A DNA stretch of 58,249 nucleotides, the filler included, from Platydemus manokwari (Eukaryota), in NCBI GenBank assembly GCA_037951405.1. It is 5 parts of 5 records of this genome, joined end to end, with 100 filler letters (N's around TTAATTAATTAA, not from the genome) between each part and the next. Parts side by side here need not be neighbours in the genome. Positions count along the whole stretch, not along the records: positions 1 to 9,878 come from JBBMOY011193543.1; 4 more parts are not named here. One strand, 5' to 3'. The position numbers were made by a program, and so were the translations under genes. Below are positions 1 through 46,111 of this stretch, one piece after another (within the stretch, counting starts at the first letter, position 1; every line of letters begins with the position of its first letter). Under the pieces are notes generated by a model that saw only the letters and a program-made list of their open reading frames with translations, ran no database searches and had not been told where the DNA came from.

Positions 1-410
1 TAATTCATTACTTATTATAATTTATTTCCCAAATGTGAGTTTTTGTTTAATTATTTTTATTTATAAAGAATCATATTTTTTTTTAATTTCATCATAATTT
101 TACAATATGAAATAATAATAATTAAATCATTTTCTTGTATTATCAATTATATTATCATTGTTTAATTAATTATTAAATAATCTAAAAGTAGAGTCTTACG
201 TGCAAGACTTGTTATTATTAGTTGTTGTGATTGTGTATTTGAGTTGTGCGAATAATTGATCGCACTTTGTACCTGACATTTGAATTGACATGTTGTTACA
301 CATCCTAAGATATTCATAACTCATGTTCATAACCAAGGAAGAAGTGATTGCTATTTAATTGATATTGTCGTTTATCAGAAACCGTCAATGAATAAAATGA
401 TGTTGAGTTA

Positions 411-496
411 TGGTGATAAAGATTCGTAAATATTAATATTTATTCATTCAAAAAGTTATACTAATATATAGTATTTAAACAAATACATATATTACA
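411..496 (-). repeat. 3' LTR (~86 bp) of the Gypsy element
   Basis: Core 413-474 matches 4193-4253 with 2 substitutions and 1 indel. On the minus strand it starts TGTAATAT immediately after a purine-rich PPT-like tract (GAAGACGGACAGA). Confidence 0.85.
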
Positions 497-3400
497 TCTG
501 TCCGTCTTCGGAAATCCCAGCGTCTAGGTAATTTATGTATATATCTGGCTTTTTAATTCTTGTAGACTTCTTCGTTTTCTCTCCCGTGTTTGGTGATATC
601 TCCTTTTTTGAGTCATCATTTCTGTTGATGATCCTTTGCCGCTTGTTCACACCTTCGATACTCGTATCATTGTCCTTTCCTCCATCATCATTTGAGATAT
701 TATTTCTACTTCCGATTTCCTTTACTTAATTATAGTTTCCTTGAATAATTTTAATCAATTTCTGACTGTAGAACTTATAAATCAATACATTTATTTTCTC
801 TAAAATCTTGAATGGGCTTACAAATCTTTTACCAAAAAGTTTGTAAAACGGATTTTCAACCATCACTATATCACCAACTGATAATTAATGGGAATATTTT
901 CCTCGGTTATAGTATTCTGCTTGCTTCACAATCTGAATCTGATTATAATTCTGTACTTCAAAAATTTTTCTATGATGACTCATAAACTCTTCCTTGCCTG
1001 ATTAATAAATAACCGTGGTTTTCTACCGAAAAGAAATTTGAATAACGAATACTTCACTGATTTGTGACGTGACATCCTTAATCCATATTCAACATGTATC
1101 ATTACGTCATCCCAGCATGAGCGATTCTTCAATGATGCTGTAATCATGTTTTTGATTGTCTTAAAAGTTCTCTCAATTACCTCACTTGATTGCGGATAAT
1201 ATGGTGAAGGAAATGTTCCCTTTATTTCCATACTAACACATAATTCGGATAATAATGTAGATTGAAAAGTTGTTCCGTTGTCAAAATGAATACATACAGG
1301 AGCTCCAAATTTACTTGTCCACTCTTTCATTAATGCCTTGGCTACATTTTCTGCGGTGATATGCTTTAATGGAATAAGCGATAAATATTTAGAAAAATAT
1401 TCTATGATACCTAGTAAGAACCGGTTTCCTTGTTTTCTTTCAGGTTATGGTCATGAATTATCGATACCAACAATTTCAAACGGTTTATTTGTAATCATTG
1501 ATTGCAATTTACCTCCATTTCTTCCATCAATTTCTACAGCTAATGTGCATTCAATACATGAATGCACGTATTCGTGAATATCTTTTCTCCAGACTGGCCA
1601 ATAAAATTCGTTTTCAACAACTCCGTTTGTTTTCTCTATTTCTTTAGAGCCATTTTCATCCTAGCCTCATCGATTTGATTCAAAACTCTTTCCAAGCTTT
1701 CATTGCGTTCATTGACTGTTCTTCCAAATATCAGAATATTACCTAGATATATTACACTTTTTGTCTGATTTTCAGTCTTCAACACCACATTCATAAGTTT
1801 TTGAAAAGTAGCAGGTGCTGAACATAATCCAAAAGGCATTCGATTAAACTGAAACTGTCCGTATCTAGTGCTGAATGCTGTTTTTTCTTTTGCTTCTTCC
1901 TCCAATTCGACTTGATGGTATCCGTTCGCCAAATCTATTGTTGAAAAATATCTTGCTCCTTGTACAGCATCGAATATTTCTTCGGAATTTGGTATAAGAA
2001 AATTGGCCTGGAAGTTGCTGCATTTAGATTCCTATAATCTACGCACATTCTAGTCGTTCCATCCTTTTTCCTGAATAGCACTATTGGGAAATTCCATGAT
2101 GAATTACTTAGACTAATAACGTTTGATTCCAACATTCCATCTATTAGATGTTTAACTTCTTCTAACCCCAATAAAATTCTACGAGGTTTGACAACTATTG
2201 GTTGATCAACGTTTGTTTTCATATTATGTTTCACGATCTCGCATTTTCCTAAGACGTCTGGAACTGTAAAAAACTATTTTTGTATTTTGATAGAATCCTC
2301 ATATGATTATTCTTATCCTCAAGATTCAGTTTATCATCTAAGTTCTGTTCAATGTTTTTTTAATATTTCATCTAATCTACTTTATCTCCTTTATTAACAT
2401 GAATTATAAAACCCAACTGAATTTCCAACGCTGTCGTCGTTTATTTAATTTATCTCTTCTACCCAGGCTAAATTCATTCTGGTATACATTTTTTGGTGCG
2501 ATTCTCAATTTGCTTCAAACTTACCAAAACATATTCGTTATTTGCTTTAAGCAATCACTCGGCTATTATCAAATTCCTCTTCACTATGTTTCTCTTATCT
2601 GCAACAATGTTTATACTCCAAGAAACTATCCACTTTTAGATATTTCTGTCAACAATCATAGCTTTTACAAAGTAATCACCATCTCTCAATAGCACATAAT
2701 TCGCTAATATTACTTTTTTATTATTCTGGATCTCAGCTTCTACTTCGTCGGATTCCTTCCCTCGAACCTACCTCTAACAGTTTAAAGATTCTATCTGGGT
2801 TTTAGAAACAAAAGGTATCTCAATCCCGCTTATCTTAAAGCAATCCTTACTCGGTACGACCGAAATTTCATCTTTCTTCATATAACGTATTCCAATGAAA
2901 CATTTTGGGAATAGTTCTAACACTACATCAAAATATTGAAATAATTCTTCTGCTTCAATCACAAGTCTTAAATAAACCTGGCCTGAAGGTTTTATTATTG
3001 ATCCGTATGCAGATCTAATTTTGTTAGGAGATCTCCTCATTTTGTTTGAATCATCCTTTTTCATTAGTCAATTGACTTAATCTTCATTGATTACATTAAG
3101 CTCAGGACCCGTATCAAACAGTATCTTCACTTTTTCATCTTCAACTTTACAATCGACTATTTATTTATTTTTTGACTTTTCTGTTTTATCGATTTGTTAT
3201 AACTGCTTTTGACAACCTTCAATTTGGTTTAGCTCCTTGCTCATTCACAAACTATGCATATTGTTCTCGATCGAATTGAAGTGATTTTGTCTAGACTTTC
3301 TTGGTTTAACTTGTTTCCAGTTACCCGTATCCAATATATTACAATATTTCTCAGAAAGTGAATCTAAACTCAAGACATTGTCCTCTTCTGTGTGATGCTT

Positions 3401-4172
3401 CTTTCTTCGGTATTTAAATATTTGACATCCTTGACATCTGTAAGATAGAATCTTTGCAGATGTGGATCACCACACCGAAAACATTCAGTTGTCTTACAAA
3501 AACGAGCATAATGTCCTTTTTGTTTACTCTTGAAGCAAGTCACGTCGTGCATTGATTTCTCTTGCAATCTGATTTTCGAAGAGTTTCGGCGCTCTTTTAA
3601 TTTGACTATGTATTGCTTGAGCCTTAAATTCTCAGCCTTTAATCGTTCAATAATGTCCTTTTCGTCTGCTTTTATATATTTCAAATCCCACAGCATATCC
3701 AAATCTTCGTATTCTGGCTTTGAAACAGTTTCTTCCTTGATAAGTTTGACGGCTTCATCTATATTCTTTGGGTTCAATCGCTTTAACCCAAATTTGTAGC
3801 TCTTGTTAAGAAGCCCTTTAATGAATATTTTTTAGATATCTTGTCCTTATTTTCCATATCAATTCCAGTCACAGAGATTTTTACTCTTTTTGAAAATTCT
3901 TTGATGGACTCTGACGGCTGTTGATAAAGTATCCAAACCATCATATGTGATGTCATTGCTGACTTCTTGTATATATCGACAAGAATTTTCTTAATTGAAG
4001 ATAACTATTACACCTACTATACATCAAGATCTATATAATTTGATAAGAATTTTCTTCTTAAATTTTCCGGTATTTGCATAGCTTCTACATATTCGTTCAC
4101 TGAAGAAAGGCCTTTTTCTATATTTTCACAATTAAAAAACGTGGTTCTTTAAAAATTAATCGAGTAATTTCT

Positions 4173-4191
4173 AAATCTGCTCGTGACGCTA
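4173..4191 (-). promoter_or_regulatory. Primer-binding site complementary to the 3' end of a tRNA-Ser(CGA)-type tRNA
   Basis: Plus-strand AAATCTGCTCGTGACGCTA resembles the metazoan tRNA-Ser(CGA) 3' end (...AATCCTGYTCGTGACGCCA). It abuts the LTR, and the canonical TGG reads TAG. Confidence 0.7.
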
Positions 4192-4282
4192 TGTGATAAA
4201 GATTCGTAAGTATTAATATTTATTAATTAAAAAGTTATACTAATATATAGTATATAAATATAAAAATATATACAAATACACA
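4192..4282 (-). repeat. 5' LTR (~90 bp) of the Gypsy element
   Basis: Direct repeat of 411-496. Ends in CA on the minus strand directly before the PBS. The outer boundary is decayed and no TSD could be identified. Confidence 0.8.
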
Positions 4283-5302
4283 TAAATGGTACCAAATGTT
4301 GCGTAGCTATGTTATGTTTAAATGATTTGGTAAAACAAAAACTTTAAACAACTAAAAAACATGAATAACTTTTGACTCAGCCTAATATATTAATGTTATA
4401 AAAATAGCTTCAATGGCATTTGCGGTATTGATTAGTCGGATTAACTAACGATAAAAGATTTTATTGATATACATTTAGCAATCATTGAAATAGTTTTTCT
4501 CAAATATAGATTTTAAAACTAAAAGAATCAACAATGACATCAAATACTCATTTTTGCTTTCATTAAATTTGTAACTAAAATATCATCTTTTATTGATGAA
4601 ATTAATCGTTAAGTAAATTAATAGAGACTCATTGTCACAAATGTTTCTTTGAAAATATCTATTATCGTTAGGCTTCAGAACCCTTAAGATTGTCAAGAAG
4701 AAATATTGAATTTAATTAAATCTTGCAATTGGAAAATAAAATTACAAAAAATCTTTAATTTGATCTGATTGTGAATTTTAAAATTTAAAGAATAGACAAC
4801 CATTTCTCAATTTAAAATATTTTCAGCAACGCGAACAACATTATTATTGAAACAAAACACATTATCGATGAAAAAAAATATAAAAACGTACTTTGAAAAT
4901 CTATTTTAAAATATTTTGTTCCAGATAATTATTTCGCGTCCATCATCATCACTGATACATTGAAAAAAACATTGTTATTATGTCAATGTTATCAAGCTAA
5001 TTCAATGGGAACTATGATTTATTGTTCTCGTTTGCAACTAATTTTTATTCATTATGGTACCAAAGTCACATCTATAGCTTTGCTTTTGTCATTAAAACAT
5101 TAACTATGTATTCCGGCGGGATTATTTAGCGTGTTTAATTAGATGTGAAACAAATAAATTCATTTATCAAAGCTTCTGCACTAAAAACACGTAATCTAAT
5201 AAAGTTTAGCAGAATTTTTATTGTTTAAAATATTTCATCTTGTCATTGGTGGATAATGTTTTCATATAACATAGAAGATACTTTACTTTTGTCATTTTAA
5301 AT

Positions 5303-6055
5303 ATGATCGGTCAAATCGTCATGATAATTATTGGGAATTTCGCGTTTTCGTCTTGTATTAGTTGTCCAAGTAATTACAAACTTTATAATAATTTATGTAT
5401 TCACGTGTCGGTTACAATCAAAATGATGTGTGGTGCATGTGAATATTGTTATCAAATTAGTGGAAGATTAGCTTTAGATAATGAAATATCAACCATTAAT
5501 AATATTCTAACAATTCAAGGAGATGAGTATTATTTTTTAGGTTTCACTGATTTATTTGAAGAAAAATTGGATAATAAAAAACAATGGTTAAATATTGATG
5601 GTTCTTTTACTATTCATGATAATTTTTGGATTCCGAATGAGCCAAATAACTATGGTGATGGAGAAGATTGTACAACTTTTCATAATAAAGGAATCGTTGA
5701 TTCAGAGTGTATATCTAGTCACTTATTCATATGTGTATACGAGAACATCACCAAAGTCAATTCAAAGCAATTCGTATTAAATAGTTTGAATATCTTTAAT
5801 AATGATAATGACGTGGGCTGTTATGAAATTATGACTGCTAAAAGTAAAATACATTGTGGAGTCCTGTATATATTTTTATATTTGATTGATACAATTTTAT
5901 TATTGATTTGTAGATGCCTTCAAAATACCAATTGCAAATCTTTCTATTATGAGGAAATTGGAAAGAAATGTGTGTTAGTGAAATATATTAAAAGTACATT
6001 ACCAAAACGTTGGAAGAGCGGATCTAGGATTTGGCATGGATATCATTCAGTATAA
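5303..6055 (+). CDS. Secreted C-type lectin (EPN-type) fused to a C-terminal PAN/apple-like domain; exons 5303-5865 and 5914-6055
   Basis: Signal-peptide-like N-terminus. CTLD motifs CPSNYKLYNNLC, FLGFTD, WIPNEPNN..EDC...C...FIC. PAN-like C-x3-C-x5-CKSFYY...C spacing appears only after removing the 48-nt GTATAT...TTGTAG intron (5866-5913). Confidence 0.85.
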   Translation: MIGQIVMIIIGNFAFSSCISCPSNYKLYNNLCIHVSVTIKMMCGACEYCYQISGRLALDNEISTINNILTIQGDEYYFLGFTDLFEEKLDNKKQWLNIDGSFTIHDNFWIPNEPNNYGDGEDCTTFHNKGIVDSECISSHLFICVYENITKVNSKQFVLNSLNIFNNDNDVGCYEIMTAKSKIHCGVLYIFLYLIDTILLLICRCLQNTNCKSFYYEEIGKKCVLVKYIKSTLPKRWKSGSRIWHGYHSV

Positions 6056-6713
6056 ACATGATTGATATTTCTTCTTGAATAATTTATTAATAAATCTTTA
6101 CTGACCGCTTATTAAATATTGTAGCTAATGACATCGATTTATCTGAACGATTATTATTTTAGTTTTACGGTTGATTTTTTTATTATATTCCTAGATGTGA
6201 ATATTATATTATTTTATTTTGAATAAATTATTTTTAGATTTGAAACATTTTAATTATTTATTAAAAATTTTACCAAATCAGATTTGTAATTCAGAAAATT
6301 ATTTTATTGTTCGAATCATATTTATTTTCATTTAATAATTATTTAATTTAGATTTTTTCACTGGGATAGTTTTTCGACATAACCACCATTCCTATATAGT
6401 AGTTTGAATGTAGTTACCATAGAAAAATATGAAACCTTTTTTTACGAATTCATATCTTCACTTTTCAGTTCAATCATGATTACGACGAATTATATATAAC
6501 ATTTAAATTTAAATAAAATTAAAATAAATGTAATAATTAGAAGATCAAATTAAATTTTCACTGGCATTCAGGAATGGAGAATAACGTAAAGCTGATTTGA
6601 GAAATATAGAAATAATAGAGAAATTGGTTCAATGATTATCTTGCCCCAATTGATATTGATGGAAACAAATGAATATTCCAACTACCAATTAGATAATCAC
6701 AAAAGGAAAGCAT

Positions 6714-8611
6714 ATAAATTACTTCCCATTTATATATAAAATAAATTTTATTGTGGTTTTATTGGTTTGATTGTTTGATTTAATGGTTTTAGTTTTTTCA
6801 TTATATGGTTTAAACATTTGCTCAGCAGATGTGAATAATATTATTTTCGAAATTATTAAATGAATAACGATTTAATTTGAGATTTTCAAGCGAACGTTAA
6901 TATAGCAATAATAAAAATGCTTATTTGTTAAAGATCGAGTTACAACTAAGCAAAGTATTCTTGAAAGAAAATATTTAGTTGTTTGTTACAAAGTATTGGC
7001 ACCGCATCATTAAATGAAAACAAATATTAAACATTATTAAAAATACTATGTTAATGAATACATTATATCATGATGAAAAATCTGTTATTTAAATGGCAGA
7101 AAATGTTGTAATATAATATCAATTTTTCAATTTAATAATGACCATGAATGGTTCGACATTAGTAACAAACTAGAGGAACTTAAAGAAATTATGGCTTGAA
7201 AAAATAAGTTAATTCGGAGGTCGAAGAAAAACAGTTCACAAAATATTTAACCTAAAAACTAAAATATTAATTGTAAAGAATTTTTTCCATAAATTAAATA
7301 GCAAAGGTTTTCAATTTTTAAAAATTTTAAATTACCGAGTTATTTAGTTTCTTTATGGATTTCGAGTTTTTGGTTTTTAAACAATATAGTTTCCCAATAA
7401 TGCATTACCCTTTATAAAAAATTTCTTTCGCAAAAATACTAAAATCGTTACGATTATTCCTTTATCAGTGACGATTTGATGAAAGTGAATTGTGAAATAT
7501 TATAATGAACTTAGTGTGTTCTTTAGATATAAAGTTAAATCTAGCATACAAAAGTCTAATTATTTAATAGTTAGCATTCCTTCTCCTTTTATGTCGTAAA
7601 AAATCGTAAAAACTAATAATCATAAGATAAAACAATATATTCTAAATTTATAAAAAACCAAATAATGGTTTTAAAGGAAATATCCCTGTGAATGTGGTTT
7701 TTGAATTATAGAAAGATTTCCTTCTTTTAAAACCTGTATTGTCTTATTTAGATCTTCTTTAATTTTATCAGATATCTAACCTATTAATTATCCAATTTCT
7801 TTATCTGCTTTATCTAATAATATAAAGCTCACTAAACTAGACACTTCTCCAACACTTTCAATATTTTCAATTTCATTAGTTCCCAATGTTAATCTCAAAG
7901 AATTAAATAATTTTTGAGAAAAATTATTTTCTAAATTTATATTATGTTTCTTCGTTTTATGTTTTCTTGAAAAAACTTAGTAAATATTTAACACACTGAT
8001 AAGTTTAAAATTACGTTTGTTATTATTTATAATGGATAGAAATTTAAAAAATTTGAAAATCACATTTTTTTAGAAAATGTTAATTTGTATGAATAATTGT
8101 AATAGAAGTGTAATTTGTGTCGTGGTTTTCTGTACGTTATCAATAACTTTAACTTGTGCATTTCATTCTTCTATGGATAATTGTGTTTTTTCATAGATTT
8201 TGAACATCTGGTTAAATAAACAAAAGATAAATTGATTTAATAAAATTTTTGTGTACTGTTTCTCTTCAACCTCCTAATTTAATTTATTTATAAAAGCCAT
8301 AATTTTTTTAATTCCTTTAGTCTGAAAAATTGAGATTATATATCAAAATTTTCTGCTATTTAAATAAGATAGATTTTTAATCATGATATCATGTATTCAT
8401 TAACATCATATTTTTCATCTGAGAGTAGTGAAATTTTTTTCACTTCATGAAATGGCACAAAAAATTGAATACTACCAAAACTTTGACACATAACTTAATA
8501 TTTACTTTTCAAAAATAGGTAACTTTGCTGTATTAACGTTCGATTTAAAATAATGACATTGGGTAATCGAACCAAAATAAAAATTTATTTTATATAAATA
8601 GGAAGTAATTT
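6714..8611. repeat. Long diverged inverted repeat (arms ~6714-7250 and ~8245-8611), each arm carrying a decayed minor-capsid (penton)-like gene
   Basis: Collinear blocks shared in opposite orientation: AAATTACTTCC(C/T)ATTTATATA..AAATAAATTTT, CGAACGTTAATA, TGTTAATGAATACA, TATTTAAAT(G/A)GCAGAAAAT, AAATTATGGCTT, GGAGGT(C/T)GAAGA.AAACAGT.CACAAAA. Peptides LFLKSKY*V and KKISLLSDEKYDVNEY resemble penton N-terminal motifs. The repeat is solid; the penton assignment is weaker. Confidence 0.7.
7500..8207 (-). pseudogene. Decayed Polinton/Maverick/adintovirus-like double-jelly-roll major capsid protein gene (N-terminal part)
   Basis: Manual minus-strand translation: MFKIYEKTQLSIEE* (from 8207), QKLFNSLRLTLGTNEIENIESVGEVSSLVSF, G*LIG*ISD, DNTGFKRRKSFYNSKTTFTGIFPLKPLFGF. 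These match in order the NN..LF..I...L....IE....G, GW..D, N.GF..R and IPLKHxFGF motifs of invertebrate Polinton-type MCPs. Recognised by eye, not by search. Confidence 0.7.
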
Positions 8612-8796
8612 AATTTCAAATCGCAGATAATGAAATCCATGAATAACATATTGTTAAAGATTGCTGATGTGGATTATAATAATTATAAAAAGATATCAAC
8701 TAATACGGTTATTATTATCAGAGGGATTTGAATTATGATAAAGTTAAATATATTCACCTAAAAATCTTCAACATATATGGACTCCAGACAGATAAG

Positions 8797-9300
8797 AGGT
8801 TGTTGTTGTTGCTTAAAAGCTCGCTTAATATAATATAAATAATATTTAAATATATATGATAACAAAATAAAATACAACAAATAAAAGCAAAAATAATAAA
8901 ATGTATTAATCATCAATAATTAATAATCCAAACACAATAATTTTATGATACTACAAGGTGGTATTGATTATTTTGGAAGCAAAATAGTAATCAAGTAACA
9001 GTAAATGGCTTGCCTCTTAGGTCCTCGGGCAAGCCTCTAGAGACAAAAATGAAAGTGGGGAGTTTGAAGTTGAACTGATAGATTTTAACGGATCGCAAGG
9101 CTGAAACTAGTCGTGGGTCTAGATTTTACTAAACAATGAATAAATTTACTCATTGGATGCATAAAATATCTTCGAGAATTAAATTCTTCCGAACAGAATG
9201 AGCATAAACATCTTCAAAATTGTCATACAATACTTCTTTAAAGAGCTGAAATCGTCATACAGTAAAATATCTGGTCAAAAATGTGAGTCGTAATTGTGCG
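8797..9300. mobile_element. Possible Penelope-like retroelement terminus (GC hairpin and degenerate hammerhead-like core)
   Basis: (GTT)n tract at ~8800, perfect 8-bp stem GGCTTGCC/GGCAAGCC (9007-9035), and CTGATAGA...GAAACTAGTC (9075-9112) resembling a minimal type-I hammerhead with a broken core. Confidence 0.3.
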
Positions 9301-9878
9301 ATGATTGTCTGTTGCTGCCAGTATTTATACTGTTTTGTATGCGAGTAAAATTCATGCACCTTATCGCCATTTTTGGTAACATTCTTTATTTAGTAGCATT
9401 TGCTACTTATTTTAGCACATGTAAGGCATATGTTACTATTTTTAGTTTTAGATTCAATTTTTGGCAATTAGAGTCTATTTTAGTCTATACATTAGTCTAT
9501 TTAGCAATATAGAGTCTAGTTTTCGTTATTTCTGTTTTCCGTACATCGTAAATTCTATTTTCAGATTTCAATGTGGTTTTTCCAAATTGCCTTAGTGTCT
9601 ATCAGTTATGGTGCAGTAAAACAAGTTTAAAATGTTTATAGATATTTATGTCTTCTTTTAAAAAAAATTATATATTATTAATTCTAATTATTTTATACTT
9701 CAGTTGGATCAAAATGGCCACGTTAGTTCCCCACGATATTGATTAATTTATTGTTATTGCACAATATTATCTTTGATAAATTGTGTTCCTGTGTTCATGA
9801 CAAACATTGAGAAATCATTTTATATTTGATTTTATCTCATCATTTCATTACTTCTCATTACATTCAGTACAAGAGAAC

Positions 9879-9978
9879 NNNNNNNNNNNNNNNNNNNNNN
9901 NNNNNNNNNNNNNNNNNNNNNNTTAATTAATTAANNNNNNNNNNNNNNNNNNNNNNNNNNNNNNNNNNNNNNNNNNNN
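9879..9978. other. Artificial contig linker N44-TTAATTAATTAA-N44
   Basis: Identical 100-nt six-frame-stop spacer also at 21559-21658, 31635-31734 and 44249-44348. Confidence 0.95.
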
Positions 9979-10179
9979 ATAGAGTGTAAAAGATTGAAAT
10001 TGATAACAAAACATTATTTTGAGACTGATAACAAACATTGTTAATTAAATAAAGAAGCAACCCCAAAACGCATCAAAATCATTAAAATTACCTTTTAATT
10101 AATTCGCTCATTAAAACAACGTATATAGTGAATTTATCTTTGAAATAATCAGGCTGAATAAAAAAACAAAAAAACTAAT

Positions 10180-13100
10180 ATTTATCTGTTTTAACATAAA
10201 ATTCATCACGACGTGGTGGCACATGTCCTCAAATCAATTTACAGTATGTATATTTTCGCTTCTTCCGATGAGTATTCTTGCCGACATTCTTTAGATTAGA
10301 ATTGCTCGTTTTCCATGTCAATAGTTAAACTATCAAATTGTGGTCGTTGCAGATATTTGGTTGTATGGTCTTGACCAAGATGGTGGATTTAGTTGTATGT
10401 CACGAAGGCATCTTTCAGTGGAGTGGTGATGAGAAACCCGGCAATGAAGGTAATCTGTGGCTTGATTAGACCGATGTTGGCAAGCACCTTTTTGTTTTTC
10501 GGGTCCCAATATCCAAGTACTTCAATACAGAGTACATCAAGTGATGTTTCATATCTGGTTTTAGTTTTGATTTCAGCAGCTATTGTCCGATATTTTTCAA
10601 AGTTCAGAAACCGATGTTTTTCAAAGTTGTCCGAAATATCAAACGGGATCTTCAGGTCGATGATGTAGGCATGTCTCTTGGCTTTGTTCCTGATGATCAG
10701 ATCCGGTCGCAATCTTGTATTTAGTTCCGGTGGGCTTGTATCAATATCGGTATCCAGTACGAGTGATTGTGAGTAGTTGCCTAGGTGGTCCAAGATGTTT
10801 GAATGTCTTTTTGATGCCAGACCAGAGACCACTGGACAGTGAATGAATATGTCGGTATCAGTTTCCGGTTCTGTTTGGCATCGTCGGCACAAAGTTGATT
10901 TCCCTTTCTTCATGAAATATGGTGTGTAATTCAGTAATAGTAGATTGTTTCTGGCCTGATATGTGAAAACCCAGACTTCTGGTGACAAGTAGAAGTTTTT
11001 CAGAGGCTTTTGCTAGTGATGACTGAAGCAGTGAACCAGTCTTCCTTGTTTTTTCATGGTATCCCACTTGTCATAGGAATGCATTGATACCGAGTCCTGA
11101 GAATGTCTGAGAGTTTACCACGATTGTCGAAGTTGAAATGGTAAGTCTTGTTGCTGTCCACCGTGAGTTTCAGGAAAATTTCAGTGTGGTGGCTGTAGAG
11201 TTTCACTTCGATTTGGCTCTTCCTAAGTTTTATGACTGCAAAGCGAGTTTTGGTCCACCATATAGCTGCTGAGGATGGTTTTTCAGTCTGTAATTTGTCA
11301 GGCATCCAGAGAAGTGCCTTCGCGAGATCATTTGATTCAGTCAATCGGTGCTTCACAATGTTGATTATGTGATTTGACATGAATGTTCTAACTTCTTGGT
11401 CCGGGCTTGTGAGATAGAGGAAGGCACCGACAATGCTCTGTATGCAATATTCCATGAGGGATGTAGTGAGTCCGATCCCGCCAAGTTTGGTAGGTGCATA
11501 GAAAAAGTTGTTGTTGCTTGAGTTTGATCTGTCCATTTTTAGTATTTTGCGAGATATTCGACGTATATTTTTGTTTAAGATCAGTTTACTTGAATCCAGT
11601 TTGGTAGTTTCTACTTGTAAAATTCGGAGGTGAAAAGGCAATCTCGAGTGCAGAAAAATATTTTAAGCTTGGAATTTTTGTGAAAGATGCAGTCTGGAGT
11701 CTGCAATCGCTTCAAAGTCTGTGATGATTGATTCTTAGATGTGGTCGATCGGTGATAGCTTGGATAGACCGAAAGGCACTCCGACATATTTGTAGAGATT
11801 GTCACTATCCACGATTGGCACTGATTCTTCGAATATTGTCGGGTCGATTCGGTTCTTAATATTTTTGCAGAAGTAGCCACTTTTTGAGGTGTTGATTGTG
11901 AGTAGAATATCCGTTGCTTGATGAATAAGTTGATTCAGCCGATTTTCCAAGTTCTCTCCAGAATTTGCTATGATAACGATATCTTCAGCGTAGGCCAGTG
12001 TTATGAGTTGAGTGAGGAGCGCAGGAGGAAATTAATTGACAGACAGAAGAGCGTCATTGACAAGGGGCATCCTTGTTTTACTCCGCGGAAGATTGGAATC
12101 GGTGGTGTCTTGAGCATTCCACAAGTATAAGTTGATTTGTAGTCTTGGAATATGGCCTCGATCATCTCAGTATAATGGGTATTGCAACCCATTTTGTTAA
12201 GCGTTTACTAGATGACCTCTTGTGATAGGCTTGGGAAGGCTTCTTTAAGGTCGATCTTTCAGAGATGTAGGTCCTTGTTGTGGTGGGCCAGGTATTATTG
12301 CAGTGAGAATAGATAAGCATTGTGCTCTGCGCATCCGTTTGATGCAAACATTGCTTTTGATATGGTGACAGTAAGTTTACAACATCTATCCATTTCAGTA
12401 GCCTTAGGTTTAGTATTGTTGTGAAGATCCGGTAAGACGAGTTTGTGAGAGCAATGGGGCACCAGGATGTGGTTATGTGGGGTGTTGATTGTTTTCCAGG
12501 TTTCAGGAGGTTTGTGTTGAATTCTTTCCATTGATCCGGTATTGTTTTGTTCTTGAGGATTCTATTGAACATTGATTGGAGAAAGATGTGCTGGGGATCG
12601 ATTAATCCCCAATCTTTGTAAGTGATACCATCGTTTCCAGATGCCGAATTTGTCAGTTTTTTGAAGGTATTCTCAATCTCAGTGAGAGTGATAATCTTTA
12701 GATTTGAGTTGTCTTCGTGTCTAGGCAGAATTAGTTTGAATTTTTCTGAGATTTGCGGCGGAGCTGGTTTTGAATAATGATTGATAATTTCTTGTAAGGA
12801 TGGACTTGACATTGGGTTTGTTGATGGCATTATGCTTTGAAGTGTCTTTTTTGGCTTCTTGAGGATTTGATTGTGAAGTTTATAGTCTAAAGTTGATTGG
12901 TCTGAAAAGTGGAGGACTGATGGTTTGACCATTTTCGTTGCAGCGAAACGGGTTTCATCTGTTGTTGCTATTGTCGTACGCGCTGATGTTAACATTTGTG
13001 TAAGGCCTGCTGCTCCAGTCTCGTTTATTTTAATTGTTTCGATCATAATTGGGTTCATCGTGGGACTGTTTTCATTGTTGGATTGAATCGACAGTTTCCG

Positions 13101-13800
13101 GAATAGAATTGTAGCAGATATGATCTTGTTGATGTCATTTTGAAGCTGAGGTTGGACTGGGATGTGGAATACCGAACTTTTTGTTTGCATAGCCCAGTAT
13201 GTGTTGTATCACGAAGAGTTTAGTTGAAGTAGTAGTTCATCTAAAGTTGATTGTTTCAGATTGATCTGTTCTTTGATTGAAATTAGATTTTGTAGGACTG
13301 AGTCCAGTTTGTTTCATAGAGACTTTTAAGCTGGAGAGAGGTGCCTCGTTGCTGGATCTATGAAGTAGGAGCATTCTTTGTCGCGATCGACTATGTACAC
13401 GTTCCAATTGCAGTTGTTCCAGCAGATTAATCAGAGTGCGCTTTTCCATGTTGACAGCTTCTGGAACGGGAATAAATTGTAGAATGACTGGTAGTCATTA
13501 TTTTGTATTGCGATGGCTGGTTGTGGTTTGATGAAGATATTGCTGTTGTTGTCTGAGACTTTGTTGATCAGATAGGCTTCGATAGCGGCACTTGATAGTC
13601 ATTCCGAAGTTAGATCCTCAGTTGTGAGGAGTAAGGCATCAATATTAGTGTTGTCTTTTGAGCTGGTTGTTTGTGGCTTGTGACTCTCAAAGTGGTATTT
13701 GAATCCATTAACTGGTCCAATGTATCCACAGTAGCATTGGACAGCAAATTCTGATTGGAGGTTGATGTTGTGAGTTTCCCTTTGAAGTTATTCTGATGCA
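10180..13800 (-). mobile_element. Decayed NeSL/R2-group non-LTR retrotransposon (Ulp1-like protease, RT, CCHC, restriction-like endonuclease)
   Basis: RT motifs SASGNDGI, WCPIALTNSSYRIF, RGVKQGCPLSMTLF, LAYAED (YADD decayed), YKYVG, GGIGL. C-terminal CRRC...ETDTDIFIHC, RHSNI, RPDLII, IIDLKIPF, KY (RLE). Upstream Ulp1/C48-like motifs *LSSAAIEAYL and NNCNWNVYIVD...YFIDP (~13350-13605). Many frameshifts; ends approximate. Confidence 0.92.
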
Positions 13801-24808: not shown

Positions 24809-27800
24809 TTAGTAATCTTTCTTTAATTCTGCTTTTTTATACATTTTGAATAGATCACTTGCTGAATAATTGGGGCAAAATATTTTAACAAAATGCCACA
24901 AGTATCTAAAAGGAAAACATTAAAATTAAATTGTATTTAGCGTGCAAATTTGTTGTTGATTTAATAGATAAAATAGAACTGTCATTTATAATCGATGTTA
25001 AACGATTTGATATTGTCTATCATATTATGGTTTTTTAATCAAATAAACATTCGATGATATTTTTCCATGAATTCTGATGATAAATAAATAATCGATAATA
25101 ATATATAATATGATTCATGGTTTACATTTATTTGGTATATTTTATTCAATTAAAGTAAAATTTATATTTACAAAAGTATGACACGGATGGTTATAACTAC
25201 CGAAACCCACTGGTGCATATCAAAGGTCGAACGATGCCAAATTTTAGGAACGCCATGTATTGGAATTCTAGCTTTAATCTCAATTATCGACTTGCCTAAT
25301 TTTATTAAAGCTTTTTATAAAACCTATCTTAATATAAAATTATGCCAATCGATAGTTGAAATGAAAATAATTGTGATTTTATCAAACGGATTAATAATCA
25401 CCAGAGAATAATTCATAGATCAAAGGAATTGAAAGTTGTATAATATTAGAAATCTCGAATCTCTTAGAAAATTATATCAACTAAAAGAACAAATGAACTA
25501 TAAAACAAAGATTTTAAATTTTACATTGAATTTAGAATTAACACGTTTTTATCGATCACCGATTATTTACAATTCACATTAAAATATTGAATAAATACTA
25601 TTATATAAATTTGATGTTCTACAATATATCACTTACATAATAAAAACAAAAAACAATTTAATCTTACTTGAAATAATGTGATTTATGAGATTTATTAACA
25701 GTTTCCAATACTGATTGAATACGATTACCAACTCTGACAATGCTGTGATCAAGATATTGGTAATCTTCATTTTTCTGATTATTTGTGAGGATTTTCTGAA
25801 CAGCTGCGAGGTCTTTTCGACATTCTTTCATATAAGCTTTACACTAAAATGGGAAATTAAATAGTCGAAAATTTTACCAAATAGAAAATTTTAACACAAT
25901 CATTATGGAAAATTTCTTGGTGTTGAACTTGGAAATGAAAATATTTTATAAAACTAGTCAATGGGTAATTCGCAATGTAGTAAATTAGAATAAAATAATG
26001 AAAACTTTATATCTAATATTGTAATTGATAACAATATTTTCTATATTACACAATATAATATTCTTTGGTTCGCTGCAATTAGAGCATTTGTGTATGTGTG
26101 TGTGTCATTCAAGATCCAAATTAATAAAAAACAACTATAACCATAAGAATAAGAAGAGTTCTCAAGTCTAAAATTTTTATAAGATAGATTCCAAAAATGA
26201 TTTTTTTATCTTAATAAAATCCCCGGGGAGAAAGAGTTAAGTCGATTTTTGTACAGAGGAGTCAATCTAATAATTTACTTACTGTCATCAAACCCTTTGA
26301 TTGATACTATCAACCAACTCGACTCTCAATATTTTTAATTTCTTAATGACTGAAAACACAAAACTTTCTAAAAATAAGCTATATTTTTGTACAGAATGAA
26401 ATGTGATGAAAGCTATATTTGAATGATTATTTTAAAATAACAATGTCAGTTCATTCACAATCGTATTGAATACAAACTAAATAACTATAACACAAACTGA
26501 GATCTTACATAGAAATGAATTTAAATCAAAAATATCAAAAATAAATTATCATACACAAAGTAATAAAAATTTACTAATTAAAATAATAAATTGTTTTATA
26601 GTTCTTTTTACAAATTATATTTTTCAAACATCAATAAAGTGTTTATCCATAACAAAATAACACTGAATTCATCATTTTCGAACATTATTTATGTAAATAA
26701 TAATGATACATATAAGAAAAATATTATCAATATATAAATTTGAACAATATATATTTAACTAGTAAATATCGAAAATCAATAATCGCTACAGAGATATTTG
26801 AACTTTTATAAGACGATTAATATCATAATTAATAATATCTCTAACAATTTATATATGTATAACACAGATCGAATATATTATTATTAATGGCAAATCATAA
26901 ATTGTACATGTAATGTTCAATGGAGTGGGTTGGAGTTCATTTTTACTAATATCAACAACGAAATTATATTGTACGTGTGCCACATTATATCAGATCAGTT
27001 TTATACAACAATAACCAAATGTAAATCCCTTCATTTGCGCAATGATTGTTCCTCTACATTTTGTAGTTAATGATTTATATTATATATGTCAGAGGTGGCC
27101 AACTTTTGTGTACGTAAGATCGCTTTTCATTTGAATAACATCTCACGCGATAGACTAAAATTGGCTTCAAGATCGACCGGTTGACCACCCCTGATATATG
27201 TGACACCAAAAATATATATTGGAAAGATTAAAAATATCCATTTCATAGTTATACATTATCAATGTTAATAATAATGGTGATAATAATAATAATACTGGTG
27301 ATAATAATAATATTAGTANNNNNNNNNNNNNNNNNNNNNNNNNNNNNNNNNNNNNNNNNNNNNNNNNNNNNNNNNNNNNNNNNNNNNNNNNNNNNNNNNN
27401 NNNNNNNNNNNNNNNNNNNNNNNNNNNNNNNNNNNNNNNNNNNNNNNNNNNNNNNNNNNNNNNNNNNNTAACAAATTATCAAAATAATAAAAGACCAACC
27501 TCTTTGAACATAGCACCGGAACAAGATGTGAATTCGTCATCTCTAAAATCATCTAGATCAGCATGATTTAAGGGACGTTCTGGGGATGATGATTTATTGG
27601 ATATTGATGACAAACTGCTATCGGTATCTGATGGTGATTTGGATCGACAATTTTTATTGACGATTTTTGGTTCTGATTTACATTTGTCTGTTTCCATATC
27701 ACTAGCAATACTCGATGATGATTTTTTCAAATTGGCACCACCGAGCTTAAACTTCAATTTGATTGGTTGTTTACATTTCGTCAATACATCAAGCAAATAA

Positions 27801-30800
27801 TGAACACGTGTACTCAAATGTTTCTCTTGTGGCAAAATCGATTTGTCTGATTTGAGAATTTTACTTTTCAATTTCAATCGTGTATCGTATTTGATTTCTT
27901 TCCAACTCGACATACCGTGCTCGTAAACACCGACCAATAAATGATTATCATCATCACAGGTCCATTCACAATTCCAACTGGTTGGTTTGGTTTTATTGAT
28001 AAATTGATGATTAATGCGTTCATCATCGGAATATTGGGTCATGATCATATGTAATTCATTGAGTGAATCGATTTTTGTGATCAATGTTTTGGCAACGATT
28101 GCATAACCGTTATATTCGAATGTCAACGTATTCAATTCATCACTGTCACAGTTTTCCACAACGATTTTCCGACAACCGTCAATGATTTCCATGATGCAAT
28201 GACAGAGTTGCGATTCAGTTAATTTCAACAATTGCGTTTCCGATTGGATTTTTTCCAATCGTTTCTGTGGACAACCGAATTTCTGGATCGTTGTTGCCAG
28301 TTTTCTGGTTTCGATTTTATTCAATTTACCCGTGGTGCTCATTGAAATGTTGTTGGTGATTTTGGAGTTGGAGTTGTGTTTGGAATTGGATTCGGTGGTC
28401 ATTTTTTTCGGAATCATATCGATGATAGCGTTGAGATCACCACGATTTTTATTCAGTGTGTCGATATATTTCTTTGGAATCAATTCCGACCAGGTTTTCG
28501 CTTCAGCTTCCGTTGCGATTTCCGCTGGCGTATCCATGGTGTCAGTGTCTAATGATATGACTTTGAAAGACGATAAAAATGCATTGGTAGCACTGGATGT
28601 GTCCTGGTCACGGATTTCTGCTTGTTTGAGAATGGTTTGTAAATTGAAATCCGTTTCATCGCTATCATCGCATTCCTTGAATATTTCCTGAGCACTGAAC
28701 CGTAGAATGGCTTCGAAATCATCAGCTTCCAATTTGGATTTGTTGTTTTTCGAACTGATCCCATTGGCTTCCATTCGTTGAATGATCAAATGATCGAGCA
28801 CCATTTTCCGTTTGGCACGTTCGATGATTTTCTCTTCCACGGAATTTTTGATTACAAATCGATAAATGGAAACCTGTTTCGTTTGACCGATTCGATGGGC
28901 TCGAGCCATCGCTTGTAAATCGGCATGGGGATTCCAATCGCTATCGAAAATGATCACCGTGTCGGCAGTGGTCAAATTGATACCCAAACCACCGGCACGA
29001 GTGGACAATAAGAAACAGAAATCCGTCGAATTGGAAGCGTTGAAATTTTTAATGGCTTCGTTACGCATCACTGACGATCGACTGCCATCCAATCGTTGAA
29101 AGCCCCAACCTTTTAAACAGAGATAATCATCGAGTATGTCCAACATGCGCACCATTTGACTGAATATCAACACTCGATGGTTTTCCGATTTCAAATGGGT
29201 CAGCAATTTATCCAGAACAATCATTTTGCCGCTGGATTTAATCAGATATTCCTGCCGTTCGACGTGTGTGGAGAGATTTTTCAATTTTTCACTGATTAAT
29301 TCCACATGATTGCAACATTTCTTCAATTCGACAATCACATTCTTGAATATTGTTCGCTTGTTGGTTTCAGCTAGGAGCGAATCGAAATTTTTCGCCAATA
29401 TCAATCGATAAAGTTCTTTCTGTTTGTGAGACATATTGATGCGGAGAATCTGTTCGGATTTGGCCGGCAACGATTTTTCCACGTCTTTCTTTTCTCGTCG
29501 AATGATGTATGGAGCAATGGTTTCGCGCAAATTGGCCAATTTTTCATTGCACAACTCTTCATTGCCGTTATTGCCGAATTGTTGTTCGAATTCATCGAAA
29601 TGGACAAATGTTGTCGGCATAATAAAATGCAACAATGACCACAATTCTTTGATATTGTTCTGCAACGGTGTGCCGGTGATGAGAAATCGACAATTGGTAC
29701 TGAATGGATAAATCGTTTTGTACAGTTTCGATTCGGCACTTTTCAATCGATGAGCTTCATCGACACCGAGAAACGTCCAATAAATATTGCTGAGCAATGA
29801 TTTGTCATTCATAGCGATCTCATATGTGGTCAACAGAGCATTGAATTTCAATCGTTTCGTATTCGGTTGGAACCATTCGTATTTGCGAATGATTTCTCGC
29901 GATGCAATATCGCCCGTATAAACAACGGTATAGATTTCCGGTGCCCAAATATCGAATTCGCGTTTCCAATTATCAATGGTGCTCAATGGCACAATCAATA
30001 AATATGGCCCATAAATGTCATAGCGACGGAACAGTGTGCTGATAAAAGAAACGATTTGAATGGTTTTCCCCAAACCCATTTCATCGGCAAGAATGCCATT
30101 GTGACCGATTGTCCACAGTTTCAACATCCAATTCACACCGATTTCTTGATAATCTCGGAGAAATATTCGATTGCTATGGTGACCGAATATGAAATTCTTC
30201 GAAAGCGGTGTAAATACGGGCCGACGACGCAAGTACGGATTGTCGTGCGTCGGGATTTTAACGCTGCGCAAATTGTTTTTGTATTCGATTATTGCATTTT
30301 TGAACAGCGGTTCCACAACGCTCTCCGCCGATTCGGCAGTGACGTATTTGTAATCCAATGATTTCCATTTGATAAAATATTCCAAATTGCCCACTTTATC
30401 CACTTGATGGTGGATGACGCGATCGATTTGCATCTTCTGATAATTCATTTCTCGAACTTGTTCTTCGGCAAACAGACGCCGTTCCAATTCATCGGCGCTG
30501 CAAGAATTCTTGTATCGTTCGGCTTCCCGAAATGACTGAATGTATTTATCCAACTTTTTACGCCCTTCAACTCGTCCACGAGCCTTGAGGCTGTCTTCTG
30601 ATTCCCATGTGGCGTGAACGTAACTCCAATTTTTCCATTTTATTAAATATTGCTGTTCGGTTCCCTTTGTATTGTCAGATGAGTTGGGGTTATAAATAGA
30701 ATTATAAATTGTTGTTTCATCACCCGTTTCTCCTGGAATTCCTAACCGCGTATCCAAAACTTCTTCTATTGTATCGACTTCTTCAGTACTGTATATAAAA

Positions 30801-31288
30801 TGTGAATAAATTCATTTGAAAACATTTTTATTTAATGAGGTTTAAAATAATAGGAATTTAAAACTCGAAAACATTACAAAATATCATTTAAATTTACTAC
30901 AAAAAATTACAAAACCATTACGTTTCTGGTTTCAAAGATTCGTTTAAAATAGCATTTCTTGGTTTTTTTCTGACTTCTACATCAGAATTTTCATCTGAAT
31001 GATAATATGTTCTCTTTTCCTTTTTCCTTGTCTGATTCGATAACTTACATTAAAGAAAATAAGTCATATATCAAAACCTTAGATGAACTTGTTGAAGATG
31101 CACAAGGACTTTGATTAGAACTATATACATCATAAAAATCATTATAATTATTTTGAGGATATGTAAATTTTGAATAGAGATTTGGCGTTTGATTATCACA
31201 ATAATTAGAGTATCCAGAAGAATATCTCTGCCGACAATGTAATCATAAATCAAATTAGTGAATAAACACTTACATTAATGTTGTTCAT
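24809..31288 (-). CDS. CHD1: Chromodomain-helicase-DNA-binding protein 1/2-like remodeller (~1278 aa); exons 31288-31274, 31227-31078, 31031-30922, 30788-27500, 25843-25668, 24905-24809
   Basis: Tandem chromodomains (YLIKWKNWSYVHATWE; EYFIKWKSLDY), SNF2 ATPase (GILADEMGLGKT, DEAH, LITGTPLQN), helicase C (LLSTRAGGLGINL, QAMARAHRIGQ), SANT/SLIDE-like region. Last two exons encode the CHD1 C-terminal helical domain (CKAYMKECRK...IVRVGNRI...YLWHFVKIF...MYKKA*). All introns GT-AG and frame-consistent; the intron-2 acceptor has an in-frame alternative 12 nt upstream. Confidence 0.93.
27090..27193. mobile_element. 104-bp hAT MITE in CHD1 intron 4
   Basis: TIRs CAGAGGTGGCCAAC / GTTGACCACCCCTG. Perfect 8-bp TSD ATATATGT at 27082-27089 and 27194-27201. 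Confidence 0.9.
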
Positions 31289-45100: not shown

Positions 45101-46111
45101 GTACCACGTAGGCCTAACCTCCAATAAATTAAACAGTTGAGGGCCTTATTTTATTATATCTCTAGTACTAGAGGTTTAGACTACCTTCTGGAGTCATGTA
45201 TAGTTATATAGTTTAATATTAAGTTTACATAGCCTAAAAGATATATTTGAATTTTTATATAAAAGGTTTAGTTATCCTAGTTCAACTATGTATATAAGGA
45301 TCTCAGTAGGCTGATTAAGTCACTAACAACTGGTGAAAAATTGTTGATGAACTTAACTCAACATTTTCTTTGATTCTGATAAGAATAGAAATCAATATTG
45401 AAATCATATAAAACCATTAACCTTGAGAACAAATATAAGTGACAGATAAGTTAAAAAGAATAAAACTGATCATTTTGAAATTAGCGTAAAATGGAAAAGA
45501 AATATCATTTATACAATAATACCTACAAAAGTCTCCAAACTATTATAAAACTTTTTCACATAGAATTAATAAACAAATAACCTCTTAAAAATCAAATGTC
45601 GAAATTTATTGAAAATAACATTTCTTTATAGTAAATAAACCGTACACAGTATCGGGATACATACCTTTCAAAACTAACATTTCCCGTGTATAACCATATA
45701 GTTTTTTATTAATAACAAATTGTGTAAAATCAAGATTCTGTTATTTTTAAAAATAAATGGAAACATTCTCAAATCAACTTATTTAAACTCATGAAATGTC
45801 CAAATAATAAGAAACTCTTGATATCAAATAGGAATAATCGTTTCGAATTACAGCACATCTGTACCAATATAAAAACTTTAAAATTTAAAATAAATAATAT
45901 TTTGGCCTTTTATATCGTTTGCTTTCATTGTACAAAATAAGAAATTTAATTGTAAATTATTAGTTATATTTTTTCGAAATTAGAAATGAATTACTTCATT
46001 ATAAATTTCTTCCATTGTTTAATCATACTAAATATCAGTAACCATGATTTAAAACTATAAAGATTAATTGAATTATTAAGTTTTTTATGAAGTTATTTTG
46101 AATAATAAATA

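Follow-up and report, generated by a model that had tools for sequence, protein, structure and literature searches.

An inverted repeat around a decayed Polinton/adintovirus-type capsid gene in a scaffold of Platydemus manokwari

Non-autonomous Polintons were reportedly described in the founding Polinton paper of 2006. The Polinton/adintovirus gene set is defined in PMC8502044 (available part of the text). In vertebrates, 96% of Maverick loci are degraded, and the ends of these elements consist of AG- or AGT-repeat termini with a 6-bp target-site duplication, according to the accessible sections of PMC8097293. Polinton-related insertions are known in invertebrates, including flatworms, as stated in the available portion of 10.1101/2025.04.19.649669. 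Our literature search, which covered few subscription papers and the main texts of preprints, turned up neither a capsid-only nor a fold-back derivative of a Polinton.

The locus described here lies in a window of 58,249 nucleotides (five joined parts, filler included) from the P. manokwari assembly GCA_037951405.1. It resembles Polintons/Mavericks (adintoviruses; Orthopolintovirales) in its capsid gene of the PF21738 type, whose relatives are accompanied by pPolB, rve integrase, ATPase, protease, penton, PLA2 and pX-like genes. It differs from them in consisting of a capsid fragment and probably one small neighboring gene, arranged in an inverted and duplicated layout.

The decayed capsid gene and its surroundings

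The locus is located inside one gap-free stretch (positions 1–9878) of a eukaryotic scaffold with animal-like genes and retroelement remnants, and the sequence around it is AT-rich, with about 22% G+C. As the initial annotation had stated, the region contains no listed reading frame: no ORF of at least 100 aa overlaps positions 6056–10388. Pfam gave zero matches over the cut-off in the six read-through frames of 6400–9000 and 8600–9878, and Rfam gave 0 matches on 6000–9878.

Several other features are found in the window. An ORF at 5270–6055 encodes a C-type lectin and a PAN domain, and its raised depth (100–355) suggests a multi-copy family. A decayed LTR retrotransposon with reverse transcriptase, integrase and a gag-like ORF occupies 980–3831 on the minus strand, and a direct repeat (413–492 and 4193–4271) may represent its LTRs; the integrase at 980–1444 goes with the reverse transcriptase of this remnant and not with the capsid locus. 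The decayed ORFs at 10389–13208, which have no Pfam match at E 0.01, resemble by eye a non-LTR retrotransposon with a restriction-like endonuclease. Farther away, a CHD1-like helicase (27479–30811, 1110 aa) and a TPR protein (46109–48259, 716 aa) are each encoded in a single uninterrupted frame.

The minus-strand gene at 8003–7612 is a double-jelly-roll major capsid of the Polinton/adintovirus type, as had been proposed from three ordered motifs, which are indeed present in that order and interrupted by in-frame stops. A 70-residue read-through query retrieved 12 proteins at E ≤ 0.001 among 1.84 billion; the two full-length ones both score above the Pfam threshold for PF21738 (double jelly roll-like domain). 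For one relative, P0009, a structure was predicted, and it matches three known major capsids at E 2e-13 to 2e-12, namely those of Singapore grouper iridovirus, PBCV-1 and mavirus; a PDB sequence search gave no capsid or penton matches, and a structure search was required. With a profile of 25 relatives, the gene was matched at 8003–7655 (E 1.3e-23) and, in the next frame, at 7806–7614 (E 1.7e-12), covering profile positions of about 57–190 of 418, clear from about 75. The nearest proteins, P0004 and P0008 from metagenome contigs, share 60–63% over 43–52 residues, and the window piece groups with both in a tree of 25 capsid-core rows, without starred support. The stops lie at 7979, 7790, 7778, 7650 and 7644, and the frame changes near 7745. 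Scans of two collections with the capsid alignment gave 0 of 181 candidates in viral contigs and 0 of 25 in prokaryote genomes. A 23-nt direct repeat of 87% identity (7630–7652 and 7919–7941) lies near both ends of the core and is probably due to chance in A+T-rich DNA.

Preservation of this gene is very uneven. Core positions 75–176 still score 124 bits, compared with 129–170 bits in six held-out intact relatives, whereas positions 1–75 reach 10–15 bits (46–96 in intact relatives) and positions 178–300 only 12 bits (124–157). Thus, only about one third of the gene is clearly kept, and it is incomplete at both ends. A more decayed continuation (positions of about 190–285) probably occupies 7365–7611 on the minus strand and ends near the left arm. 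Its signal is weak: for positions 188–228, 3 and 2 of 324 real-DNA controls were equal or better, for positions 188–285, 9 and 6 of 326, and a nucleotide profile matched 7588–7523 at E 7e-4. By spacing, the N-terminus should fall within 8004–8235 on the minus strand, with the start near 8160–8190, but the sequence there is unrecognisable and scores at chance level. The right arm had been thought to run directly into the capsid gene; instead, about 230 nt (8235–8004) without any match lie between them. By contig joints, the right arm ends near the expected capsid start.

The capsid relatives themselves have a clear genomic context. Among the metagenome candidates, 19 of 347 stretches encode them, and their neighbors include pPolB, an A32-type ATPase, an rve integrase joined in one protein with a PLA2-like domain, protease-like and pX-like genes, and a penton confirmed by structural comparison with the mavirus penton (E 2e-6; Z 13.2, rmsd 2.4, 128 aligned). 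This is the Polinton/adintovirus gene set of PMC8502044, as given in its available part. The pPolB and integrase are linked to capsid relatives on different contigs: L003 carries pPolB, protease, penton and capsid, and L002 carries integrase, ATPase, penton and capsid. The related pPolB matches PF03175 weakly (E 1e-10). As for gene fusions, a zinc finger, the PLA2-like domain and the rve integrase share one 441-aa ORF in L002 (5188–6513) but are split over two adjacent frames in L001, and in L019 (1560–3143) the packaging ATPase is fused to a conserved gene that is the separate next ORF in L002 and L014.

The inverted arms, their outer motif and other copies

The capsid fragment lies between two arms of a long, clearly diverged inverted repeat, in agreement with the initial annotation. 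The left arm (6715–7254, plus strand) aligns directly with the right arm (8612–8236, minus strand) in 19 blocks, with 299 of 351 aligned bases identical and many indels. Several deletions make the right arm shorter (about 379 nt) than the left one (about 542 nt); joints of one other contig suggest that the arms may extend to about 7337 and 8160, respectively. The strongest blocks are 6715–6758/8612–8570 (40 of 42 aligned bases identical), 6921–6999/8553–8475 (63 of 71), 7036–7129/8418–8323 (83 of 94) and 7166–7248/8324–8243 (70 of 81), and all four score above 300 of 300 shuffles. The arm-versus-arm score is 150; when the left arm was compared with 278 further pieces of 380 nt taken from the window, the maximum was 43. 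The flanks beyond the outer motif do not align (p 0.06; none significant in eight separate tests), and 1 of 28 tests hinted at inverted similarity farther inward than the arms. The differences between the arms are evenly spread over codon positions in all six frames (27 differences), as neutral decay would be expected to look. Folding is predicted to pair the strand arm on arm still, with the capsid piece in the loop, so that such a hairpin, if transcribed, would yield no stem small RNAs against the capsid gene. A small hairpin of 8 pairs (6705–6727) straddles the outer end of the left arm (1 found versus 0.1 expected in 50 shuffles of 6650–6850; post hoc).

Both arms begin at the same motif of about 45 nt, as had been noted, but they were said to read inward from it, and the motif scores in the opposite direction. 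Its left copy (6715–6758, minus strand) consists of a T-rich tract, an A-rich run and the ATG at 6729, and scores 8.6 bits as an outward-reading gene start; the right copy (8570–8612, plus strand) has the same outward-reading context (8.1 bits) with a decayed start codon. The matrix was built from 44 of 51 ORF starts of related loci, seven being left out as truncated or internal; scored with themselves left out, the true starts reach a median of 7.0 bits. Read outward, the ATG at 6729 outranks every other one of the window's 2118 ATG sites, and it comes second of 2118 when the most similar locus, L019, is removed, whereas the inward ATGs near the motif score −15 to −19 at best. The A/T-rich start context is not unique to viruses, and another window site also scores 7.7, so this is good rather than final evidence for a gene start. 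The motif occurs only twice in the window, and a search allowing up to 7 mismatches in 34 nt did not recover it from any of the 24 related loci. From its sequence context, it is best read as a gene start pointing outward and not as an element end. Indeed, an outward gene starting 15 nt from the shared end would not fit a natural terminus, and the alignment of any two overlapping copies stops where the shorter one stops, which would account for the shared outer start of the arms. Finding the motif only inside Polintons had been named as evidence against an independent element; it does score as an internal gene start, read outward, which goes part of the way in that direction.

Profile tests offer one lead on what the arms encode. 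Six of the 19 related loci have a small gene (103–140 codons) immediately ahead of the capsid gene and on the same strand. A Lys/Glu-rich stretch of the left arm (7163–7232, plus strand) resembles the C-terminal helix of this small gene with 22.9 bits, which was reached by 0 of 1244 real-DNA controls and 0 of 500 codon shuffles (best 22.7). The same stretch of the right arm (8246–8315, minus strand) scores 16.2 bits (p 0.014), but it is not specific, since the end of another conserved gene gives it 16.7 bits (p 0.012). The match involves about 20 low-complexity codons and 1 of 25 profile-segment tests, the full-length test was not significant (12 of 140 and 66 of 148 controls equal or better), and the closest relatives at the DNA level (L002, L005, L007 and L012) have a different, divergent neighbor upstream of the capsid gene. 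Judged from these sequence matches, it is a toss-up whether the inner arm ends derive from the small pre-capsid gene.

Profiles of the ATPase, PLA2-integrase, protease, pX-like, PZ-like and pPolB genes scored at chance level on the arms and flanks, the best exception being the end of the PZ-like gene (as we presumptively label this conserved gene) on the right arm (p 0.012–0.13 across tests). The integrase N-terminus in the right flank reached p 0.075–0.26. A protein search with 69–223 aa of left-arm peptide gave no candidate, and a 40-aa open stretch of this arm gave no usable match in the Atlas, neither of which implies absence. A likeness to L014 (1242–1643) seen by eye was not upheld. The pPolB-like peptide suggested at about 8690–8735 (plus strand) is unsupported: it matches one related pPolB at E 1.6, 5 of 58 control pieces were equal or better, and it has no Pfam match. 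No pPolB was found in the window with this one related pPolB as reference, which a small remnant could escape, and a pPolB collection scan gave 0 of 25.

Other copies were judged from the contig summary tables of one public run, which is possibly the window's own source; no RNA runs are listed among the holders of the stretch. Three overlapping contigs without difference cover 6231–8803 at a depth of 5.7–7.2, possibly from the same sample. A further contig (depth 16.4) alternates between the arms, with joints at 6966/8440, 7083/8397, 7137/8252 and 7337/8160, and runs on into 7337 and beyond; by depth subtraction, it covers about 6702–7590, with none at 6458–6619. In our reading, this contig represents a paralogous left arm with its adjoining inner stretch, the part of that copy which could be seen. 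Since this contig appears to carry the left arm together with the junction, the unit was probably copied once.

Summed contig depth is 13–120 over the arms and reaches 18,710 and 47,596 over 7592–7915, with single sites up to 9e4; such sums are no copy number and tell us no more than that the run is very rich in close relatives of the capsid core. The depths of 7592–7915 and 8726–8887 (1e4 to 5e4, versus 6–7 for the locus) could reflect many integrated copies or free virus-like DNA. Just outside the right arm, 8726–8887 has a summed depth of 11,198 and no protein or RNA family match, with contigs linking it to about 9230. Next to the right arm lies a repeated element (8670–9700, about 1 kb) that exists in many diverged copies and has no Pfam or Rfam match. 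A contig at 8907–9831 has a depth of 15.9, versus 5.7–7.2 at 6231–8803, so the latter block may be single-haplotype or affected by A+T bias. The right flank was not identified as Polinton DNA.

Origin of the inverted layout

The locus thus combines a capsid core, inverted arms of neutral-looking divergence and a motif that scores as an outward gene start. The best explanation, which we hold with middling confidence, is a fossil inverted duplication inside a Polinton capsid module, formed through a break in the capsid gene and fold-back copying. The right side would keep the native order of outward gene start, small gene and capsid gene. After a DNA break inside the capsid gene, the free end would have folded back and recopied the upstream stretch in reverse; the left arm would be that reversed copy, and its joint with the capsid gene, at the broken 3′ end of the latter, would lie near 7340–7520. 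Copying would have ended a few codons inside the outward gene, at what is now the shared outer end. At least one later round of copying would then have duplicated the rearranged unit, both copies having since decayed. One break with fold-back or template-switch copying explains the layout in a single step. Also in its favor, the spacer looks like a single run of minus-strand capsid sequence whose signal is lost toward the left arm, the inner arm ends resemble the small pre-capsid gene, and the right arm ends, by contig joints, where the capsid start is expected. A spacer of about 800–1000 nt is long for simple fold-back priming. The initial annotation had offered two virus-derived pieces joined tail to tail as one option, which comes close to this reading. 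The locus encodes nothing intact and most likely has no present function.

A collapse by deletion is the strongest competitor, although we consider it rather unlikely. Here, two neighboring Polintons in opposite orientation, or one with gene-bearing terminal repeats, would have lost their outer parts later, and a deletion would have brought the small gene of the left copy against the broken capsid gene of the right one. The resulting anatomy is the same, and one-step fold-back copying and deletion between inverted copies look alike in sequence. Precedents exist in the parts of the sources available: Polintons with terminal repeats of about 2 kb holding hexon and adenain have been reported (10.1101/2025.02.07.637071), and the eri-6/7 locus of C. 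elegans bears repeats and inversions that stem from multiple insertions of Polintons (10.1101/2024.01.15.575659). Weak plus-strand signals of a capsid start would also fit. A capsid N-terminal match at 7527–7587 has p 0.005 on shuffles and is equalled by 2 of 166 real-DNA pieces; if this signal and the inward similarity mentioned above are real, a capsid start of its own follows the left copy. However, a plus-strand capsid start in the spacer was unsupported when whole segments were tested (of 328 controls, 197 and 120 were equal or better), and these tests favor the minus-strand reading of the spacer. In addition, deletion needs at least two events, and the arms lack the third-position bias expected from the divergence of active copies, though only 27 differences could be compared.

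A duplication of 9 nt at the target site is typical of Mutator elements. A near-direct repeat of this length (8 of 9 identical; 6691–6699 and 8625–8633, plus strand) flanks 6700–8624 and could be such a duplication, for which a length of 8–11 nt was considered. It would suit a non-autonomous, Pack-MULE-like element that has long terminal inverted repeats, has captured a piece of the capsid gene and was moved in cut-and-paste fashion by a transposase acting in trans. The start of the other contig near 6702 fits this improbable reading as well, as does the finding that the arms match only low-depth DNA (13–120x bins), whereas the capsid core reaches 19,000–48,000x. Yet, the chance of such a repeat is 0.30 over the ends scanned and 0.05 with the left end fixed near 6700, the two supposed ends show no match over their outermost 12–15 nt, a single other copy is indicated, a viral-type gene starts outward 15–30 nt from the end, and no transposase domain was found in six frames. 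There is likewise a slim chance that a fold-back piece of the capsid module itself became a small mobile unit, with viral gene stretches as terminal repeats and a host transposase or helper Polinton spreading it, in an animal whose DNA would be very rich in this otherwise host-less capsid lineage.

Far less probable is a small capsid-only element of penton-capsid-penton layout, whose penton gene would lie in the long terminal repeats. A capsid gene does lie between long inverted arms, and a second copy with a similar left end is indicated, but the penton-like nature ascribed to the arms did not hold up. A frameshift-aware profile of five pentons of the same virus group, their identity checked by structure, scored 11.6–15.6 bits on both arms and either strand; shuffles average 12–13 bits, and 10 of 88 real AT-rich control pieces reach 15.6. 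In the positive control, 19 pieces of 330 nt from five held-out intact pentons scored 52–153 bits. Since the capsid core keeps about three quarters of the intact score (124 versus 129–170 bits), a penton of like age should have shown. On the center of the locus, the profile gave p 0.016 in 1 of 21 tests, and a penton scan found five distant loci, none matching the arms. Furthermore, the arms (380–620 nt) are shorter than pentons (759–790 nt), and the motif at their ends is best read as a gene start. Around the locus, 4 left and 10 right near-matches to AG/AGT-repeat ends yielded 0 pairs with a 6-bp duplication, though invertebrate ends may differ. With no Polinton end motif, no 6-nt duplication and a capsid gene incomplete at both ends, the capsid-only terminal-repeat element is largely refuted; what survives of an independent element is a single additional contig, arm-like and with its start close to that of the left arm. 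Finally, mis-joined reads in this draft scaffold with gaps are a negligible source of the arms, given that these differ at 52 of 351 sites and by many indels and that the three overlapping contigs without difference, possibly from the same sample, cover the locus.

Significance and comparison with known systems

As it stands, the locus adds one case to the many degraded Polinton loci of animal genomes. Polymerase, retrovirus-like integrase, penton, ATPase and protease genes, the end motif and the 6-bp duplication were sought and not found at the locus; it is a fragment from a Polinton/adintovirus-type element and does not itself qualify as such an element. Its capsid lineage, with relatives found only in metagenome contigs, is now tied to a chromosome of an AT-rich, animal-like host. 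As judged from the contigs of the run, DNA of related capsids seems to exceed the locus in abundance by a factor of thousands, so intact relatives are probably present in that organism or sample. If the unit were a dispersed family with true target-site duplications, internal viral genes could become the terminal repeats of a new non-autonomous element.

Pack-MULEs and other non-autonomous elements with long terminal inverted repeats also have long inverted arms around a gene fragment, with the 9-nt near-duplication here as a further likeness. In contrast to such elements, the tips of the present arms mismatch, the duplication is not significant, copy number is low and the arms look viral-internal. 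The remnants at C. elegans eri-6/7 share repeats from several insertions along with rearrangements; as far as the available text of 10.1101/2024.01.15.575659 describes them, they have true 744-bp terminal repeats with a host function, whereas the repeat here is apparently internal gene sequence with no function indicated. In butterfly polintons, virion genes are likewise inverted and duplicated within one insertion. According to the accessible part of 10.1101/2025.02.07.637071, however, those elements are full-length and recently mobile, with hexon and adenain inside their repeats of about 2 kb, whereas the repeat of the present locus excludes the capsid core and everything is decayed. Fold-back inversions after double-strand breaks are reported for yeast and cancer chromosomes (PMC10622511), whereas the spacer here is long and the mechanism is read from the layout; in both cases, two inverted arms enclose an unduplicated spacer.
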